Shown piece by piece: positions 4,664 to 44,020 of a stretch of DNA of 64,000 bases; position 1 is the stretch's first letter, and each line of letters begins with the position of its first letter. The stretch spans positions 3,046-67,045 of the forward strand of contig CATBQD010000005.1 of assembly GCA_949505625.1 (NCBI GenBank), in the 5' to 3' direction. The position numbers and the translations under genes are program-made. This DNA comes from an uncultured Bacilli bacterium. Lineage in GTDB: Bacteria; Bacillota_I; Bacilli_A; RF39; UBA660. The notes beneath the pieces are model-generated. The model worked only from the letters and a program-made list of their open reading frames with translations. It was not told the origin of the DNA and did no database searches.

Positions 4664-4878
4664 TTCTATCAGCAACTAGTGTGAGTAATAACCATATTTG
4701 CATCTTTTAAAAAACAAAAAATCAACAATCTATTTTTAGAAAGTTGATTTTGTTTTTAAATTCAAATCATTTTTAAGAGTCCAAATGGATTTCCTTCTAG
4801 TGCTCAAAAGGTAAAAGTACGACAATTCTTTGAATCAAAGAAATAGTGAGTAATAAGCTTAACTAATGAAACTATAAC
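4664..4878. repeat. ~210-nt repeat copy R1 (3' element of the GluRS-family gene); contains a bidirectional terminator hairpin AAAATCAAC-N16-GTTGATTTT
   Basis: ~85% identical to 6922..7138, aligned by eye; begins 10 nt after the aaRS stop codon. Confidence 0.6.
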
Positions 4879-4887
4879 ATAATTTAA

Positions 4888-6525
4888 TTAGTTAAAATAG
4901 TCAAATCTAGATTTTATTCTATCTTTTCCTAATAATTTCATTATTTCATATAAATCTGGAGTCATAGACTTAGTAGTTAAAGCAACTCTAATAACCATAC
5001 TAACATCTACAATACTTCCTTTATATTTATCAGAATTATCTTTATAATCTTTTGTATTAGAAGCATACCCTAACTCATCAGATAATGATTTCATTTTTGC
5101 AAACCACATATCTTTATCATCACTAATATTATAATATTTATTAATATAAACATCTAATATATTTTTTATTTCATCTGTATTAGTTATATTTTGCCATTCA
5201 TAATTATTTTCATCATCAAACAACTCATCATACATATACCAAATATAGGATTTAATTTCAGAATAACAACTAAAATCTTTTCTTGGCTTTTTTTGTTCTC
5301 TCTCTATATTTAATATTTCTATAGTATAATCTTTATATTTGGTAATAAGAGTTGCAAAGCTCTTATCAAATTCATTAGCCCATACTAATAAATTATCATA
5401 TACTTCTTTGGCTGATAATCTTGACAAATAATTTTTAGAAATATTAATTACCTTTTCTAGATCAAATATAGGTCCACTTTTGCTCATCTTATTAAACGTA
5501 AAAGTAAAATTTCTATAAGATATATTTGAATTTTGTAAAAACCAACCCTCGAAATTAGAATTCATTATAGTTGCAAAATATAATTTAATTGCCTCTACTG
5601 GAATTCCCTTTTCGTGATAAAACGACACTGCTGCTTCTGGATCTTTTCTTTTACTTATCTTTCTTATCGTATTTCCTTCTTTAATATTTAGTGGAAGTAA
5701 ATGTGCAAATTTTGGTGCTTTAAATCCACAAGCCTCCCATAATTCCAAGTGATATGGTACTGATGATATATATGAATCATCTCTAGTCACAGTAGTAACT
5801 CTCATAAAATGATCATCACATACATGGGCTAAAGCATAAGGAGGAATTCCATCTGACTTAATTAAAACTTGGTCTATATCATTTTCAGGCAATTCAATAA
5901 TACCTTTTACTAAATCTTTAAATACTATTTTCTTGTTGAAATCTCCTAATGATTTTAATCTCAATACCCATTTATCACCATTATCAATATGATTTTTCAC
6001 TTCATCATAACTTAAATTTCTACATTTAGCATAATGACCATAATAACCAATTCTATCTTTTCTTTTTTCTTGCTTTTCTCTCATCTCGGCTAAATCATTT
6101 TCAGAGCAAAAGCAAGGGTATGCTCTTCCTATTGATACTAGATATTTAGCAACTATATGATAAATCTCTTCTCTTTGAGTTTGAATATATGGTCCATAGT
6201 TTCCGCCTTTAATTGGGTGTTCATTAACTATATAATTATAATTTTCTAAATCTTCAATAATTAGTTGAGTTCCATTTTCGATCGCTCTTTTATTGTCAGT
6301 ATCTTCAATTCTTAACATAAATATTCCGTTAGTTTGATTGGCAATAACCTCTGGAATAAATGATGCATATAAATTTCCCATATGCATTCTCCCAGTAGGG
6401 CTGGGCGCAAATCTGCACACTTCAGCACCATCAACCAAATTTCTTGGTGAGTACATTTTTTCCAAATCTTCAATTGTTTTTGTAATATTTGGATATAATA
6501 AATCCGCTAAATCGTTACTTGTCAT
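4888..6525 (-). CDS. gltX: class I aminoacyl-tRNA synthetase, GluRS family (divergent; RFAPSPTG and RIEDTDNKR GluRS signatures but HxGN and KMSKS motifs like class-I LysRS)
   Basis: Motifs CRFAPSPTGRMHMGNL, LRIEDTDNKR and KMSKSGP. The ORF-finder start at 6567 lies inside the leader terminator; the likely true start is the MTSNDL Met at 6525, preceded by an AGGAAAGGAAAGG RBS. Confidence 0.7.
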   Translation of the reverse strand: MTSNDLADLLYPNITKTIEDLEKMYSPRNLVDGAEVCRFAPSPTGRMHMGNLYASFIPEVIANQTNGIFMLRIEDTDNKRAIENGTQLIIEDLENYNYIVNEHPIKGGNYGPYIQTQREEIYHIVAKYLVSIGRAYPCFCSENDLAEMREKQEKRKDRIGYYGHYAKCRNLSYDEVKNHIDNGDKWVLRLKSLGDFNKKIVFKDLVKGIIELPENDIDQVLIKSDGIPPYALAHVCDDHFMRVTTVTRDDSYISSVPYHLELWEACGFKAPKFAHLLPLNIKEGNTIRKISKRKDPEAAVSFYHEKGIPVEAIKLYFATIMNSNFEGWFLQNSNISYRNFTFTFNKMSKSGPIFDLEKVINISKNYLSRLSAKEVYDNLLVWANEFDKSFATLITKYKDYTIEILNIEREQKKPRKDFSCYSEIKSYIWYMYDELFDDENNYEWQNITNTDEIKNILDVYINKYYNISDDKDMWFAKMKSLSDELGYASNTKDYKDNSDKYKGSIVDVSMVIRVALTTKSMTPDLYEIMKLLGKDRIKSRFDYFN

Positions 6526-6527
6526 TT

Positions 6528-6790
6528 TGACCTTTCCTTTCCTAAATAAAAAAATAGATTCATCCAATAAGGACGAATCTATCGTGGTACCACCTTAATT
6601 TATATAACTTTAAAGTTATATATCTCAACATCTTAACGCGATTAACGAAATAACTTGAATACGCTATTTGGCTCCAAAGCTTCTTTCAAACATTTCAAAT
6701 GTTAATTTCCACCAACCATTAACTCTCTTTGCATTGAAAATATTTTACTCTTCTTCTTCATTGCTTTCATAATATGTGCTAATTTTATCA
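6528..6790 (-). promoter_or_regulatory. T-box leader (tRNA-sensing riboswitch) with terminator/antiterminator
   Basis: minus-strand RNA carries AAUUAAGGUGGUACCACG (T-box consensus AAUUAGGGUGGUACCGCG), followed by hairpin GAUAGAUUCGUCC-UUAUU-GGAUGAAUCUAUU and a U7 run directly before the RBS. Stem-I-like AGAGAG and GGUGGAA elements lie upstream. The specifier is ambiguous (GAAAGAAG could read as Glu GAA or Lys AAG). Confidence 0.6.
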
Positions 6791-6896
6791 CTTTTTAATT
6801 CACTTGTAAATAGATAAGTTGCTGTTCTCTCAAAATATCTAGAATTTTTTAATTTTTGATATTGGTGATTAGCCATTTCTTCTTTCGTTAATATTT

Positions 6897-7138
6897 ATTA
6901 CTCTTGAATGAAAAGTTCGAGTTTCCTATCGACCAGTTGTGAGTAATAACCACATTTGCATCTTTTAAAAAGCAAAAAATCAACAATCTATTTTTAGAAA
7001 GTTGATTTTGTTTTTAAATTCAAACCATTTTTGAGAGTCCGAATAGATTTCCTTCTGGTGCCCTTTGGGAGGACGTACAACAACTCCTAGGGAAAAATAA
7101 ATAGTCAGTAATAATTCATTAACTGACTATAGTATATC
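6897..7138. repeat. repeat copy R2 (3' element of lysK) plus a 38-nt motif shared with the tRNA-Thr-like flank; includes the lysK terminator hairpin ATAGTCAGT-N12-ACTGACTAT and the bidirectional AAAATCAAC/GTTGATTTT hairpin
   Basis: aligned by eye to 4664..4878; first 38 nt (6897..6935) also match 10650..10688. Confidence 0.6.
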
Positions 7139-7163: not shown

Positions 7164-8717
7164 TCATAATAAATTTTTGATTTTTTCTTTATCTATTGCC
7201 ATTAAAAATAATCCTAATTTTGGTCCTTGATCAGTACCTAATAACATATTGTATAATATTTGAAAATATCTTTTTTGTGCTTGTTTTAATTCTTTATCAA
7301 CTAAAATCTCATCTTTCACAACATCATACAATGCTGTTTGTAATTCATTTGTAGTATTAAATTGGAAATCTAACAATTTAATAGTTTTATTTAACCATTC
7401 TTTTTCTAAATCACTTATTGTATTATAAAAATTATCATTTCTTTGATTTAATAGATTTACTTGATAATCAGAACCATATTCTTTAACCCAATTTATAGCT
7501 AGATCTAATCTATTACTAAATTGTTCAGAATTAACATCAATATCTTCTTTAGATAATAATTCTTTTAATAAATCAATATCAAAATTCACAATAGGAAGAA
7601 ATGTTACTAAATAACTAAAATTAGGATTTTTTAAATATTCTTCTTTTACATTTGTTAAATCTAAAATACTTTTGTTTTTTTCATCAATGTTATCATTAAA
7701 GTATAATTTTACCCATCTATCAAATTCACTATAATATCTAATAACATCATTATCAAGAGCAATATCAAATGCATGCATATTGTCAAATCTTGCATAAAAC
7801 CACCAAATAATATTTTTATCATATACTTTTAATAAATCTGTTATTGTTAAAACATTGCCTGTAGATGATGACATTTTAGCACCGCCACCTTTTATCCCTA
7901 TAAAATTATATGGGATATAAATAGGTGGTTCATAATTAAATATCTCTCTTGCAACTCTTTCAGATACTGCTTTACTACCATTCGAAGCAGAATGATCAAT
8001 GCCACCAGTTTCAAAAGTTACTCCTTCTACCATCCAGCGCATTGGCCAATCAACTTTCCATTGAAGTTTAATATTAGTAGCATTATTAATATTTAAATCA
8101 CCTCTATGTCCACAATTACACATATATTTAACATTACCAGAATCAGATTCGTAATTTATTATTTTTGTTGAATCTTTGTGACAATTAGGACAATAAATAC
8201 TTATAGGATAATAATTTCTTCTTTCTTCATCAGTAGATTCTTGAGTTCTAAAATCATCTATAATACTGAAAATTTTATCTCTATTATCCATTGCAACTTT
8301 AATATATTTATTATATCTACCACTTTGATACTCTTTTGCTTGATATATGCATTCTACTTCAACATCCATTGATTTTAATTCATTTAAAAATCGATTTTCC
8401 ATATAAGATGCATATGATTCATTTTCACTAAATGGACTAGGTAATTCAGTATAAGGCATACCAATATATTTTTCATAACTTGAGTCGATATTTCCAGGGA
8501 CCTTTCTAAATCTATCAAATTCATCAAAAGATAAAATATATCTTACTTTCTTTCCTAACTTTTTTAACTCTTTTGCAACAAGATATGGAGTAGCAATTTC
8601 TCTAAAATTTCCAATATGTACAAAACCACTTGGACTTACACCACTAGCTACCGTATAAACTTCTTCATTTGGTCTCTCATTAATAATTTTTAGTGCAACT
8701 TCTTTTGCCCAATTCAT
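7164..8717 (-). CDS. lysK: lysyl-tRNA synthetase, class I (LysRS-I)
   Basis: SGVSPSGFVHIGNFREI (class-I LysRS HxGN), FDEFDRFRKVP, KMSSSTGN; 517 aa. Confidence 0.85.
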   Translation of the reverse strand: MNWAKEVALKIINERPNEEVYTVASGVSPSGFVHIGNFREIATPYLVAKELKKLGKKVRYILSFDEFDRFRKVPGNIDSSYEKYIGMPYTELPSPFSENESYASYMENRFLNELKSMDVEVECIYQAKEYQSGRYNKYIKVAMDNRDKIFSIIDDFRTQESTDEERRNYYPISIYCPNCHKDSTKIINYESDSGNVKYMCNCGHRGDLNINNATNIKLQWKVDWPMRWMVEGVTFETGGIDHSASNGSKAVSERVAREIFNYEPPIYIPYNFIGIKGGGAKMSSSTGNVLTITDLLKVYDKNIIWWFYARFDNMHAFDIALDNDVIRYYSEFDRWVKLYFNDNIDEKNKSILDLTNVKEEYLKNPNFSYLVTFLPIVNFDIDLLKELLSKEDIDVNSEQFSNRLDLAINWVKEYGSDYQVNLLNQRNDNFYNTISDLEKEWLNKTIKLLDFQFNTTNELQTALYDVVKDEILVDKELKQAQKRYFQILYNMLLGTDQGPKLGLFLMAIDKEKIKNLL

Positions 8718-8739
8718 TTTTTATCATTCCTTTCAATTT

Positions 8740-9077
8740 AAAAAAGTGACTTAAAACAAATTGATTGTCCTAAGCCACTTATCTTTTATTTTATAAATAA
8801 AGTTTAGAAAATCTATTTTGAAGATATGCTAAAACAACCAATATTATTTATTGATTTCTTGTTCTTCTTTATAGATTTCTTTATTTGGTTGTTTAACATA
8901 AAAATCTTCCTTTCCGTTAGTATTATAACATATTCAATAATTTATGTCAAAAAAATGATGGGTACCCCAGGCGAGATGAATGCTCACATACAAAGTATGC
9001 TTACTGGCTTAGCCAACACATCGTTAATCCCTCACAAGTATCCCATCTACAAATATATTATAGCACAAATATAAAAA
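8740..9077 (-). promoter_or_regulatory. long 5' leader of lysK with an intrinsic terminator hairpin just upstream of the RBS (candidate attenuator; class not identified, no clear T-box motif)
   Basis: 8-bp stem GUGGCUUA/UAAGUCAC (8746..8778) followed by U6 on the minus strand, ~30 nt before the lysK ATG; 320-nt non-coding leader; a possible long-range pairing GAUGGG/CCCAUC. Confidence 0.3.
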
Positions 9078-10025
9078 TTATTCACATTTTTTATTACTTT
9101 TGTATTCATCAATGTAAACTTGACTTACATATTCAATTGCTATATCACTATATTTGTTAATTGTGTTTTTTGAATATGAGAATTGGTAACAATAATCTTG
9201 ATTATTTTTAATTCCTTTTCGTTTACAAATATCTTGAAATTTATTTGGTGTAAAACCATGATTCGGTCCAAGTGATAATTCTAACGTTTCTTTTATTTTC
9301 TTTACAACATCATTTGTTGTATAAGGGTGAGTTTTTTCAATATCTTTTGGAACATTAATTATAGTTGCTCGTTCGCCACCATCTTTTACAATTGTAAATT
9401 TAATATCAGCTTCTGCTTCTTTTTTAGTAGAAACTAACCTTAAAGTTTGACTTAGCGATTCATCTGAATCTAATTCCTTTTTAATTTTTTCTAGCATAAG
9501 TAAATTATTAGGATTTAATATTAAAGAAGAAACATCTTTATCATTTCCCGGATTAACTAATGCGATATATGGTGTAACCTTTTCATTTAAGTTATATTCT
9601 GTAAAATGTTTTTTGAAAAACTTATTATAGTTTGTTAAACATCTTTGAAAAGCAGGAGATAATATATAATCATATTCTGGTAAAATTAAATGAGTCGCTT
9701 TATTTCTTATATTTCTAATAAAAGAAATATTATTTTTTGTTTTATCTGTTGTACTTGTAAACACTTTTTCTACACACTCATCTAATCCAATTGTTCTATT
9801 TGAATCATCTTTATAATTAATAACATTTATATCTTTAGCTTTATTAATTAAATATGCCTTTAATAATAACTCCCACGCATTACATATAAAGAAGCAAAAA
9901 CCTTCAGTTCTATAGTTGATAGTTGGTTTATTTATTATTTCGATTGACATTAAATATGCTTCTTCTGATTTGTTTAATAAAGCATTAATATAATTATTTA
10001 ATTCATCAGTTGTCATGAATATCAT
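9078..10025 (-). CDS. HEPN-domain protein (Rx4H motif), abortive-infection/toxin-like
   Basis: ISFIRNIRNKATHL contains R-x4-H; helical N-terminal NAWELLLKAYL typical of Abi-type HEPN proteins; 315 aa. Confidence 0.45.
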   Translation of the reverse strand: MIFMTTDELNNYINALLNKSEEAYLMSIEIINKPTINYRTEGFCFFICNAWELLLKAYLINKAKDINVINYKDDSNRTIGLDECVEKVFTSTTDKTKNNISFIRNIRNKATHLILPEYDYILSPAFQRCLTNYNKFFKKHFTEYNLNEKVTPYIALVNPGNDKDVSSLILNPNNLLMLEKIKKELDSDESLSQTLRLVSTKKEAEADIKFTIVKDGGERATIINVPKDIEKTHPYTTNDVVKKIKETLELSLGPNHGFTPNKFQDICKRKGIKNNQDYCYQFSYSKNTINKYSDIAIEYVSQVYIDEYKSNKKCE

Positions 10026-10161
10026 CTCCTTTTAATTTATTATTATAACATGATTTTTGTCATTTTAATCCGATAAATTTTACTACACACGCTCATTGAT
10101 TATGTCAATGTGCAAGTGTGTTTACTAAATTGACACCATTTTGTATTTTACGGCTTACGAA

Positions 10162-10587
10162 TTAAAAAATATCGTAGTCCTTTTCTTCTAAATACAAAGT
10201 CATTTCTTTTTCTTTAGATGTATCTTTTGTAATATAAGTAATATCAGAATCATTATACAAGTTGTTAGCATAGCAATCTTTGATTTGATTTATAACTATA
10301 TCTTTTTCTTTATCTTTTCCAGACAACAAGATATTTCTAAATATATCTTTTAATTTAATCCTTTGGGAATAACCATTTATAAATACATCATCACATTCTC
10401 CAAATAATAAATAGTCATTTCCATTAACTGATAAGATAGGAGGTTTCACATAGGCAATATTTGTTCCTTTGATATTTTTTACACATCCACTTGTTAAGTT
10501 TGAACTTACACCTGCAAACCTACATATCATATCAATCTTTTTCTTTAATTCACTACTAATTTCTAACTCTTTTACTTCAACTTCCAT
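10162..10587 (-). CDS. hypothetical acidic 141-aa protein, upstream partner of the HEPN gene
   Basis: ORF with GAGGAG RBS; no recognisable motif. Confidence 0.45.
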   Translation of the reverse strand: MEVEVKELEISSELKKKIDMICRFAGVSSNLTSGCVKNIKGTNIAYVKPPILSVNGNDYLLFGECDDVFINGYSQRIKLKDIFRNILLSGKDKEKDIVINQIKDCYANNLYNDSDITYITKDTSKEKEMTLYLEEKDYDIF

Positions 10588-10690
10588 TTAAAACTCCTCA
10601 CTTTCATTCATAAATAACAAAAAAACTAGACGGTACTTCTAGTTAATAATTTATTACTCTCGAATGAAAAGTTCGAGTTTCCTATCAATC

Positions 10691-10764
10691 TGGTGCCGCA
10701 AGTAGGAATCGGACCTACGTTAAAGCCTTACCATGGCCTCGTAATACCATTATACTATTGCGGC
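10691..10764 (-). tRNA. atypical tRNA-Thr(GGU)-like gene (possible pseudo- or specialised tRNA)
   Basis: 7-bp acceptor GCCGCAA/UUGCGGC, discriminator A, encoded CCA. Anticodon stem AGGCC/GGCUU with loop AUGGUAA (U33, anticodon GGU, A37). T-stem GUAGG/CCUAC but non-canonical T-loop UCCGAUU; short D-arm with GG. Folded by eye only. Confidence 0.45.
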
Positions 10765-10813
10765 AAATGTTGGTAATATTAATTATACCATAATATATGT
10801 GAAAATAAAAGAA

Positions 10814-12496
<1,683 letters not shown>

Positions 12497-40644: not shown

Positions 40645-41250
40645 TTATTTTTTAGGATTGTAAAACAGTGATATCACTTTCGAAAATTCAAATAAAATAA
40701 TATTACTTTTGTTCACTGCAAAGCCTTTTCCCATTGCTTTCCCACCTATTGTTAGTGCTGCAATTAATGCAGTTACTATCAAGCTGACTAACAATGTATC
40801 TAAATTTAAGGAGTTTGATATAGTAATTGATAAAATAGCGCCTGTGGAACCCGATATGATTCCACAAATGTCTCCTATTACATCATTGCAAAAAGAGGAA
40901 ACCTTATCTGCACTTTTTTTAAATTTTACAGCTACTTTAGCACCTCTTACTTTTCTAGCAGCCATTGAATGAAAAGGAATTTCATCGGCAGCCGTTACTG
41001 CTACTCCCACCATATCAAATAAAATTCCTATTCCTATGAATAAAATTAATATAATAATTCCTATCCAAAGATTCACTTTAGGCATAACCGTTTCAGAAAG
41101 TGACGAAAATACAATGGACAATGTAAAAGCAATTATCGATATTTTCAAAATCCAATTATAATCAACCAGTTTTTTTTCCTTTTTATTTTTTTTGTTTTTA
41201 TTTAATTCATCAATATATTTTCCCATTATACACCTCATAAAAATATACAA
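40645..41250 (-). CDS. small 4-TM membrane protein with DxxxD motif (OapA-like candidate)
   Basis: four hydrophobic helices, NDVIGDICG (DxxxD); directly downstream, on the same strand, of the GC-rich non-coding region. Confidence 0.4.
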   Translation of the reverse strand: MYIFMRCIMGKYIDELNKNKKNKKEKKLVDYNWILKISIIAFTLSIVFSSLSETVMPKVNLWIGIIILILFIGIGILFDMVGVAVTAADEIPFHSMAARKVRGAKVAVKFKKSADKVSSFCNDVIGDICGIISGSTGAILSITISNSLNLDTLLVSLIVTALIAALTIGGKAMGKGFAVNKSNIILFEFSKVISLFYNPKK

Positions 41251-41289
41251 AAAAAATGGCTATTTATATAGTAAACTTTACGTCTTAAG

Positions 41290-41900
41290 GTCAAGTAGGA
41301 TTTCCCTTACTTCAAACTCTTTCGTTACCAAAAGAGGGGTTCCCCATTATAGAAGTAAATATATCGTCACCGAATATATGACTTGATTGCCACTGAGTAC
41401 GCACTGCAATCCTATATAAATAGACACTCTAGGAGATTTCCTCGACAACTCTGTTTATTATTAGTTCCTTTTTGCAAGTATTGTTTCATATTGCAATCAT
41501 TTTAGTTGGTTGGCCAATCAACTAAAAGTCGTTCAATAATCCCCAAATACTCACTCAGGACAAGCTACACTACTCGTAACTTATCATCACATAGTAGGTT
41601 CAATCCTAAGTCGTCATTTCTCCATCAACTTAACGTGTATAGGGAAATAACAAGATTAGGTCTCCAAGATAGATGGGTCAGATCCTGTATGCCATTACAG
41701 TTGCCCAGCTATCCATACCTCCCAGCACTCACCCCAAACTGGGCGTAAGAAGCAAGCACCAGAAGTTTCACAGATATGCTCTTTAGTGACTTTTTAGGGC
41801 CACCTTCATAATAAACGAAATTGACTAGAATAATGTGCCATTTCAATTTACATTTCAACATTCTACCATATTTAAAATAGAATGTCAAATTGTTCAATCA
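41290..41900 (-). ncRNA. candidate large structured ncRNA (OLE-RNA-like, ~610 nt); strand inferred from the downstream gene
   Basis: ~640 nt without protein-like ORFs, local GC ~42-45% against ~27% background, many local inverted repeats; only S/R-rich junk ORFs. Confidence 0.35.
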
Positions 41901-42916: not shown

Positions 42917-44020
42917 TTATTTCGAAAACTTTTCAACAATTGAATCAACAATACGCTTACTGGCTTCCCCATCACCATAAGGATTACTTGCTTTACTCAT
43001 TTTATCATACACATTTTTATCTATTAACAATAATTTCGTTTCATCATAAATTGTTTTTTCATCTGTACCAACTAGTTTTAATGTCCCTGCTTTTATTCCC
43101 TCTGGTCTTTCTGTTGTATCTCTTAATACCAAAACTGGCTTACCAAGTGATGGTGCTTCTTCTTGTATTCCACCGCTGTCTGTTAAAATAATATAAGATT
43201 GATTGATAAAATTATGAAAGTCAATTACCTCTAATGGTTCTATTAATTTTACTCTATCACAATCTTTTAAAACTTCATTTGCAATTTCTCTTACCTTTGG
43301 ATTCATATGAATTGGATAAACAACTTTCACATCTGAAAATTCATCAACAACCTGTTTTACAGCTTTAAAAATATGGCGCATTGGTTCTCCTAAATTTTCT
43401 CTTCTATGGGCTGTTAATAAAATCATTCTACTATCTTTAACCCAATCTAAAACTTTGTGATGATAATTTGTTTTTATTGTTGTTTTCATTGCATCTATTG
43501 CTGTATTTCCAGTAATATAAATAGTCTCATTTTTCTTGCCTTCCATTAACAGGTTTTCTGCACTGGCACTAGTAGGCGCAAAATGCATATCTGCCAAACA
43601 TCCTACCATTTGTCGATTCATTTCCTCAGGATATGGAGAATATTTATCCCAAGTTCTAAGACCTGCTTCAACATGACCAATCATAATGCCATTATAAAAA
43701 GCTGCCAATGCTCCTGCAAAAGTTGTTGTTGTATCTCCATGTACAAGAACAATATTTGGTTTTTCTTTTCTCATGACCTCTTCCAAGCCGTTTAAAGATC
43801 TAGTTGTAACATCACCTAAAGTTTGCCCTTGTTTCATAATATTTAAATCATAATCAGGTATAATCTGAAATGCATCTAATACTTGATCTAACATTTCTCT
43901 ATGCTGAGCAGTTACACACACAATTGTCTCTATTTCTTTTCTATTCTTTAGTTCTTGTACTAAAGGTGCCATTTTAATTGCTTCTGGTCTTGTTCCAAAT
44001 ACAGTCATTACTTTTATCAT
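42917..44020 (-). CDS. mnaA: UDP-N-acetylglucosamine 2-epimerase (non-hydrolysing)
   Basis: MIKVMTVFGTRPEAIKMAPLV, HVEAGLRT. Confidence 0.9.
   Translation of the reverse strand: MIKVMTVFGTRPEAIKMAPLVQELKNRKEIETIVCVTAQHREMLDQVLDAFQIIPDYDLNIMKQGQTLGDVTTRSLNGLEEVMRKEKPNIVLVHGDTTTTFAGALAAFYNGIMIGHVEAGLRTWDKYSPYPEEMNRQMVGCLADMHFAPTSASAENLLMEGKKNETIYITGNTAIDAMKTTIKTNYHHKVLDWVKDSRMILLTAHRRENLGEPMRHIFKAVKQVVDEFSDVKVVYPIHMNPKVREIANEVLKDCDRVKLIEPLEVIDFHNFINQSYIILTDSGGIQEEAPSLGKPVLVLRDTTERPEGIKAGTLKLVGTDEKTIYDETKLLLIDKNVYDKMSKASNPYGDGEASKRIVDSIVEKFSK

Follow-up and report, generated by a model that had tools for sequence, protein, structure and literature searches.

Which of its neighbours, if any, does the HEPN gene of an uncultured Bacilli bacterium work with? 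The gene lies between lysK and pyrG in a 64,000-nucleotide stretch of contig CATBQD010000005.1 (assembly GCA_949505625.1), hereafter the window, for which a first-pass annotation made from the sequence alone had proposed a toxin or abortive-infection pair composed of a 315-aa HEPN protein and a small acidic protein encoded upstream of it. The toxin idea survives our analysis, but the candidate partner is an RNA and not a protein: a structured small RNA of about 100 nt is encoded on the other side of the gene, immediately past its stop codon. In our estimate there is about an even chance that the gene and the RNA constitute a type III-like toxin/RNA antitoxin (abortive-infection) module, by analogy with AbiF-RCd22 of Clostridioides difficile.

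The HEPN protein and its family

The two open reading frames (ORFs) of the proposed pair are indeed present on the minus strand at 9078-10025 (315 aa) and 10162-10587 (141 aa), separated by a 136-nt gap. They are located between lysK and pyrG next to a tRNA gene, which is upstream of both ORFs on their strand. The true start of the HEPN gene is probably the ATG at 10016, which gives a 312-aa product (9078-10016), rather than the alternative ATG at 10025. This start was picked by gene callers on identical contigs and is positioned 9 nt after GGAG, which is a better spacing. An extended -10 promoter-like element (TGTTATAAT, 10042-10050, minus strand) precedes the gene. The conserved HEPN cassette begins here, and homology with other HEPN contexts starts at 10050-10057.

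Pfam finds only two domains in the product, DUF3644 (PF12358, aa 16-164, 146.5 bits with a gathering score of 27.6, E 8.7e-43) and EC042_2821 (PF18740, aa 228-302, 41 bits with a gathering score of 24.9, E 2.9e-10); the Abi_2 domain is not among the matches. The PADLOC profile PDC-S19 (PDLC04952) is matched over its full length (aa 11-302, E 1.2e-69). PHROG 9605 (E 2e-57), a family of unassigned function in PHROGs, is matched too, and a search of NCBIfam gave no match. The family is large, with 975 cluster representatives at an E-value cutoff of 1e-3. Anantharaman et al. (2013, PMC3710099) described EC042_2821, which overlaps DUF3644, as a family of HEPN domains that have a conserved motif and are fused to a C-terminal domain of a novel 'REase' (restriction endonuclease) type.

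The R-x4-H motif on which the first-pass annotation relied occurs in a single copy, R107-N-K-A-T-H112 in the 315-aa numbering (RNKATH, nt 9690-9707, minus strand), and represents the predicted HEPN catalytic dyad. Across 64 full-length representatives (24-46% identity), invariance is confined to N29, W48, K53, R104, and H109 (312-aa numbering); R104 and H109 are likewise invariant in a second alignment of 60 diverse relatives. Profile searches thus return a HEPN family, and the motif is conserved in homologs, so this part of the annotation holds. Judging by its domains and motif, the 312-aa product is a predicted RNase of the HEPN family and a member of a known candidate anti-phage family (DUF3644/EC042_2821, PDC-S19).

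The N-terminal domain is helical and is followed by about 150 aa, as had been noted. Confident helices cover residues 1-137 of the AlphaFold2 model, and the nearest PDB folds are HEPN toxins or domains (HepT/MntA-HepT 7bxo, sacsin 3o10, and AF_0298 2hsb), all of them weak matches with E > 0.3. Sequence searches against solved structures found no related structure with either the protein or the family profile as a query. Residues ~150-225 are modelled with low confidence, and the last ~85 aa have a predicted local distance difference test score (pLDDT) above 90. The C-terminal domain (Pfam EC042_2821, 'REase-like'; aa 228-302, nt 9120-9344, minus strand) is modelled as helix-helix-helix-beta hairpin-helix. 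Its PDB matches are winged-helix-like and weak, none of them has the REase fold, and a model of this domain by itself matched no fold significantly. The canonical nuclease motif D...(D/E)xK is not conserved; near-invariance in the C-terminal part is limited to K198, A203, D225, K270, Y277, and S290.

A structured small RNA past the HEPN stop codon

The RNA occupies 8950-9050 of the minus strand. Its extended -10 promoter (TGCTATAAT, 9057-9065, minus strand) is located just after the HEPN stop codon, and P1 together with a U-tract makes up the terminator. In all contexts compared, the unit travelling with the HEPN gene extends from the extended -10 element at ~10050 to ~130-160 nt past the stop codon, and this tail is conserved more than the coding sequence itself. 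The features of the tail are a TGnTATAAT box (n varies across contexts), a rod-like fold, two apical hairpins, and a U-tract, as well as the conserved motifs ACUYGUGAAGGA and CCUGGGGUU.

Two covariance models were used: R1, built from HEPN-adjacent RNA copies, and R2, built independently from phage copies only. The window RNA scores 123.5 bits with R1. R2 also recovers it (68.6 bits, E 2e-16), along with a copy in the Streptococcus satellite phage Javan334. In the alignment of 41 distinct phage copies, which was fitted to the model so that its pairing counts lean towards structure, 93.6% of cells are paired and double changes are found in 20 of 31 pairs. Slid controls gave at most 55% of paired cells and 9 pairs, and none of 500 shuffles reached the observed values. 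A TTGACA-17-TATAAT promoter and a U-tract flank nearly every phage copy. About 40 unpaired nucleotides are conserved as well, within a three-way architecture that shows covariation.

The single-sequence fold of the window RNA is unremarkable (z = -0.86); the significance of the RNA comes from the comparison with other copies and not from this fold. Rfam 15 gave no match to the RNA in the window or at 12 other loci, and no tandem repeats were found at 8700-10800 except a 9-nt coding repeat. On this comparative evidence, we consider the RNA to be a structured small RNA that has not been catalogued so far.

Several other identities of the region were tried and rejected. A lysK T-box does not suit the region after the HEPN stop codon, as Rfam places a T-box only before gltX, and signal recognition particle RNA had no Rfam match even at E up to 10. 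The copy number is too low for a miniature inverted-repeat transposable element with a terminal inverted repeat (a single copy in the 64-kb window, plus four in 1.2 Mb from relatives, every one of them HEPN-adjacent); the presence of a promoter and covarying internal stems in the unit also opposes this identity. A housekeeping RNA gene serving as an integration target is disfavoured because loci with the RNA only keep 3' codons of the HEPN gene and because the RNA is found inside prophages, though this may still hold for some loci. Another match to the pattern, at 42952-42975 of the window, falls within a coding region, and a match on viral contig L105 falls within a 1685-aa ORF; both were discarded as chance matches.

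Association of the RNA with the HEPN gene

The phage sample was collected by protein similarity first: 312 contigs matched, and 80 of them, carrying homologs with 31-37% identity, were kept. An R1 match is located directly 3' of the gene in 73 of these 80 homologs and starts within a few tens of nucleotides of the gene end. In six of the seven misses, less than ~100 nt of sequence follows the gene; L277 is the only true miss, which leaves 73 of 74 informative cases. The same was observed for each of the five prophage contexts that had been sampled by protein, and R1 also matches after the gene in a Streptococcus satellite phage. Across 1.47 Mb, R1 matched only the window copy and the sequences directly after each HEPN gene (the L031 copy being degraded), and the RNA is present with every close HEPN homolog seen, in at least 10 different downstream contexts. 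The five distant homologs (30-37% identity) belong to prophage lysogeny modules, where they are located mostly between a CI-like repressor and an integrase and have variable neighbours (Fic, Abi_alpha, ImmA-type peptidase). Members of the HEPN family occur in 46 phages and phage satellites that have been sequenced; the relatives P0208 and P0212 (43-48% identity), used as queries in viral scans, gave no match. The RNA gene is therefore both adjacent to and co-conserved with a predicted RNase toxin gene, which is the arrangement that characterises type III toxin-antitoxin (TA) systems.

The orientation of the RNA is not constant. Phage and prophage copies converge on the gene, the 3' tail of the RNA running into the final 7-15 nt of the ORF. 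In the window subfamily the gene and the RNA share one strand, and the RNA promoter follows the stop codon directly. The convergent arrangement brings to mind type I-like cis-antisense control, for which the Bacillus subtilis prophage systems txpA/RatA and bsrG/SR4 provide a model: the RNA would pair with the 3' end or 3' untranslated region of the HEPN mRNA and control its stability. The short overlap in phages is what such control would use, but the same-strand RNA of the window subfamily makes pairing impossible, and yet the adjacency and the sequence are kept there. The structure and the unpaired motifs are also conserved far past the needs of an antisense RNA, and we regard this explanation as improbable.

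Antisense pairing in trans to the ribosome-binding region of the HEPN mRNA was rejected too, as complementarity of the RNA to the mRNA 5' region is no greater than that of shuffled RNA. Since adjacency is kept while orientation flips and pairing with the mRNA 5' region is no better than in shuffles, the RNA appears to be trans-acting rather than a cis-antisense RNA or a plain terminator. Its target is probably the protein, which it would bind.

Loci with the RNA only

The gene hardly ever occurs without the RNA, whereas the RNA often occurs on its own. Some of the RNA-only loci keep traces of the missing ORF. The last HEPN codons remain in several of them (AAAAAATGTGAATAATT after topA; 28 terminal codons at L301), the HEPN promoter and ribosome-binding site are joined to the stop region at L177, and the element end is joined almost directly to the RNA at L132. 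Because the last codons, or the promoter with the ribosome-binding site, are still there, such loci must have arisen by deletion of the ORF. Three downstream contexts occur both with and without the gene; at L031 the gene was lost together with the 5' half of the RNA. This asymmetry is the pattern expected of a toxin and its antidote, and it is compatible too with the RNA having a function of its own.

The association data would be the same if the RNA were a cofactor, sensor or guide needed for activity, either as a licensing scaffold or as a decoy substrate whose cleavage reports infection. Cas13-type HEPN enzymes do use RNA cofactors, and a link between AbiF and Cas13 has been drawn (PMC12373285). 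However, loci that have lost the ORF and kept the RNA, together with the near absence of the reverse, fit an antidote better. The RNA also has no repeat-spacer organisation or variable guide-like segment, its variable parts being the covarying stems. We therefore give little credence to this possibility.

A number of observations weigh against the toxin-antidote module itself. Only 22 of 83 metagenome RNA matches have the gene and 61 lack it; among 26 informative phage RNA matches, 15 are accompanied by the full gene, one by a remnant and 10 by no gene. Orphan phage-type RNAs without a HEPN gene were found on viral contigs L294-L299, L303, L304, L306, and L317, where their neighbours are terminase-small-subunit-like, HU-like and Bro-N/antirepressor genes and, once, a convergent SIR2-like gene. 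Those adjoining terminase, HU or Bro-N genes may have an RNA function of their own, and orphan phage RNAs are possibly counter-defence decoys. The models detected no RNA near the Escherichia coli 042 prototype EC042_2821 or near a mycobacterial plasmid homolog. The partnership may not be family-wide, or the RNA may have diverged past the models; it is demonstrated only for the subfamily of ~310-345 aa. Ishtar proteins with DUF3644/DUF4145 HEPN domains were reported to be monogenic (bioRxiv 10.64898/2026.07.06.735840). Finally, the element that carries the module in the window is dead, and the module could be a relic.

These points overlap with the case for the main rival, a stand-alone autoinhibited HEPN immunity protein encoded by a single gene, next to which the RNA would be present without any relation to it, as a terminator, an insulator, or a distinct small RNA of the phage or element occupying the same slot. 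PADLOC lists the family as single-gene, Ishtar is reported to be active when moved alone, many loci, other phage modules among them, have the RNA and no gene, and the E. coli prototype has no detectable RNA. A plain terminator, however, would not keep the ~40 unpaired nucleotides, the covarying three-way architecture and a consensus promoter of its own, nor would it stay attached to the gene through the orientation flip. An adjacency as regular as that of the informative phage cases, maintained across ~30% protein identity, is hard to obtain by chance position. We consider a stand-alone protein rather unlikely, though it deserves to be taken seriously.

For the toxin-antidote module we infer RNase activity, toxicity, RNA-protein binding, neutralisation, and a trigger, which could be combined as follows. 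An abundant structured RNA with its own strong promoter and terminator would bind the HEPN protein and keep the RNase inactive, the winged-helix-like C-terminal domain being a plausible RNA-binding site. Once the supply or integrity of the RNA drops, e.g., upon phage-induced transcription shut-off or RNA decay, the RNase would be freed. It would then cleave cellular or invader RNA, so that growth or replication of the invader would be arrested.

More tentatively, we suggest that the PDC-S19 proteins of ~310-345 aa from Firmicutes, phages and satellites could form an unrecognised two-part HEPN-RNA TA or abortive-infection family. Its ~100-nt antidote RNA would be new and unrelated to ToxI or the abiF motif, and its orphan phage copies would act as counter-defence decoys.

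A different arrangement of the RNA was noticed at L118, L175, and L189. Two RNA copies, 1309 nt apart, flank an opposite-strand ORF of 306 aa beside glyQS there, and the usual TATAAT box is absent.

Comparison with known systems

HEPN RNases such as Cas13, Csm6, AbiF, and HepT are central effectors of bacterial immunity. The closest parallel to the module proposed here is AbiF(Cd)-RCd22 from a C. difficile prophage, in which a HEPN toxin is neutralised by a bound non-coding RNA (PMC12373285). Both systems have a HEPN protein carried by prophages and an adjacent conserved structured non-coding RNA. They differ in the domain (Abi_2 there, DUF3644 here), in the RNA, which here matches no abiF motif, and in its position, as the RNA described here is located 3' of the gene and has its own promoter. 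The present system is also known from sequence alone.

In type III systems of the ToxIN type, the antidote ToxI is a tandem array of short repeats located upstream of toxN and processed by the toxin; orphan or phage-borne antidote copies are known as escape devices. The likeness consists in a predicted RNase with an adjacent RNA, which is proposed to be its antidote. In contrast to ToxI, the RNA studied here is one structured molecule of ~100 nt without tandem repeats, and the predicted fold of the protein is HEPN and not that of ToxN/AbiQ.

Within its own family the window protein agrees with EC042_2821/DUF3644 and PDC-S19 in the Pfam domains and their order, the full-length profile match, the invariant R-x4-H and the occurrence in mobile elements and prophages. 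PDC-S19 is catalogued as a single gene, whereas the window gene has an RNA companion. The E. coli 042 prototype differs from the window protein in its length (437 aa), an extra N-terminal domain and the lack of a detectable RNA neighbour. The prototype gene (now EC042_RS15105; L288, 11384-14501) is located in an island at ssrA, directly after the integrase and beside a DNA methyltransferase and a MobQ relaxase. No RNA partner for DUF3644 proteins is described in the literature that we found mentioning DUF3644, and the names 'PDC-S19' and 'EC042_2821' hardly appear in the literature searched.

Two further groups have related domains. Ishtar proteins Ist1 and Ist2 (XZW63086.1, MGQ1310977.1) were described as monogenic plasmid-clearing systems of Acinetobacter hosts, with no RNA mentioned (bioRxiv 10.64898/2026.07.06.735840). 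Compared by description only, they share with the window protein an N-terminal HEPN domain (DUF4145/DUF3644), a C-terminal domain of unassigned function and a patchy occurrence at variable loci. HEC-08 has an N-terminal DUF3644 HEPN domain, and the histidine of its R-x4-6-H motif is required for phage defence (bioRxiv 10.1101/2024.01.29.577857). It differs in having a zinc-finger-like C-terminus instead of the EC042_2821-type one and in being embedded in other defence systems.

RNA-neutralised HEPN toxins were recently linked to the origin of Cas13. If the module proposed here is real, it would add a second, unrelated HEPN family with a dedicated RNA, RNA control of HEPN toxins would appear to have arisen more than once, and the RNA catalogue would gain one family. 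A widespread 'single-gene' defence candidate, found on 312 phage contigs in one scan and with 975 cluster representatives, would then need to be studied differently: if only the ORF is cloned, and not its 3' flank, toxicity or misleading phenotypes may result.

The 141-aa ORF as a deletion scar

The 141-aa ORF (10162-10587, minus strand) had been proposed as the antitoxin, which would make a type II-like pair. Its adjacency to the HEPN gene on the same strand and its mildly acidic product (pI 4.97) are in line with this proposal. No protein family match was found for it in Pfam, PADLOC, NCBIfam, or PHROGs, however, and its only full-length homolog is identical to the query and comes from the same species. 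All other matches cover either residues 1-84 or residues 79-141, never both. Residues 1-84 match ORFs of ~90-103 aa located directly before a gene for a 408-aa Mob_Pre (MobV) relaxase, and residues 79-141 correspond to the last ~63 residues of that relaxase.

The chimera was traced by blastp and blastn against L015 and L026. In the DNA alignment, window positions 10698-10342 correspond to the start of the mobile element and 10359-10084 to the end of the relaxase gene, which puts the junction at ~10342-10359, within a short microhomology. To judge from these alignments, the ORF arose when an internal element deletion of ~3 kb joined the 5' part of the small ORF in frame to the last ~63 codons of the relaxase gene; it is not an antitoxin gene.

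The distribution of HEPN genes points in the same direction. The homolog with 81% identity stands alone between NUDIX and RNase HII genes, the homologs with 30-37% identity lack the 141-aa ORF as well, and no conserved protein neighbour of distant homologs was found in the five prophage contexts. A type II antitoxin would be a family of its own co-occurring with the toxin gene; the two halves of this ORF come from two mobile-element genes, and HEPN relatives do without it. We consider the type II-like pair extremely unlikely. The locus calls for caution in annotation: an ORF looking like an antitoxin is a deletion scar here, and the actual companion is located in 'intergenic' DNA on the other side of the gene.

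A decayed mobile element next to a tRNA gene

The G+C content of this DNA is ~27%. Window positions 8001-11200 (3.2 kb compared) are identical to contigs of an uncultured gut Bacilli metagenome-assembled genome (GCA_948852825.1) and others; relatives found with gltX are 'uncultured Bacilli/Tenericutes' metagenome-assembled genomes. In one of the relatives, L026, the order is intact: tRNA-Ile, 47-nt end, small ORF, large serine recombinase, MobV relaxase, HEPN gene, RNA and the T-box preceding gltX. Both the recombinase gene (PHROG integrase, E 4e-115) and the relaxase gene are intact there. In the window the relaxase is reduced to its last 63 codons and the recombinase to a fragment of 35 codons. 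Based on this comparison, the window holds what remains of an integrative mobilizable element that had inserted against tRNA-Thr(GGU) and has decayed; the HEPN gene is its last cargo gene.

The left end of the element (10649-10695, minus strand) is the first copy of the 47-nt direct repeat D1, contains the inverted repeat CTCGAA..TTCGAG and abuts the tRNA 3' end. Such left ends abut tRNA 3' ends in six contexts: besides tRNA-Thr(GGU) in the window, these are tRNA-Thr(CGU), tRNA-Arg(CCU), tRNA-Ile, tRNA-Leu, and another tRNA end. As the tRNAs are various, their adjacency is an effect of the insertion site. The proximity of the pair to a tRNA gene is therefore real but is explained by the mobile element; the suggestion that the HEPN protein might cleave tRNAs gained no evidence from it.

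The tRNA gene itself (10691-10764, minus strand) had been called atypical. ARAGORN identifies it as an ordinary tRNA-Thr(GGU), and it scores 60.7 bits with the Rfam tRNA model (gathering score 29). It is 95% identical to tRNA-Thr(GGU) of the relative L037. The unusual T-loop UCCGAUU, with C at position 55, is common to both tRNA-Thr genes of a related species (L037, 8050-8202) and is accompanied by a covarying compensatory change in the T-stem. The atypical look of the gene is thus explained by a T-loop typical of the lineage.

A second 47-nt element end (repeat D1, 89%) is located at 6893-6939 on the minus strand. Next to it, at 6790-6894 on the same strand, is the 35-codon serine recombinase fragment, detected by tblastn with the L026 recombinase (60% over aa 249-283) and by blastn to L026. 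By sequence similarity, these two features are the remnant of a second, tandem and more decayed element, which lies between the gltX T-box and lysK. Copies of a 177-bp direct repeat with 85% identity were also noticed after lysK (6938-7114) and after gltX (4680-4856), and the same sequence follows gltX in relatives. Taken with the doubled 47-nt end, this repeat suggests two tandem units, each consisting of an element and an aminoacyl-tRNA synthetase gene, with lysK replacing gltX in one of them.

In different species, the HEPN-RNA unit or the RNA alone is repeatedly located just upstream of the promoter and leader of an aminoacyl-tRNA synthetase gene. These genes are gltX (L026, L034, L071, L143, L179), a tRNA-synt_1b gene (L020-L022, L152), lysK (the window), and alaS (L154).

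Other features of the window

The genes around the HEPN locus are gltX (4888-6567, minus strand), lysK (7164-8717, minus strand) and the divergent pyrG (10895-12496, plus strand), which lies beyond tRNA-Thr(GGU). lysK was absent near gltX in all 80 relatives examined. It codes for a class I lysyl-tRNA synthetase and has no T-box; a perfect TTGACA-17-TGTTATAAT promoter is located at 8950-8922 (minus strand). The lysK leader (8744-8950, minus strand) includes a ribosome-binding site followed by a 28-codon ORF, MLNNQIKKSIKKNKKSINNIGCFSISSK (8899-8813), with seven lysine codons. A strong terminator hairpin (8780-8744) is located just before the lysK ribosome-binding site, and the fold of the leader has z = -4.3. 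From its sequence, the leader looks like an attenuator with a lysine-codon leader peptide.

pyrG is split into ORFs of 370 aa and 148 aa in the window and in GCA_948852825.1, and is intact (533 aa) on two otherwise identical contigs; the split reflects either an error of assembly or a pseudogene at the strain level. OLE RNA is encoded in full length at 41240-41857 on the minus strand (Rfam RF01071, 419 bits).

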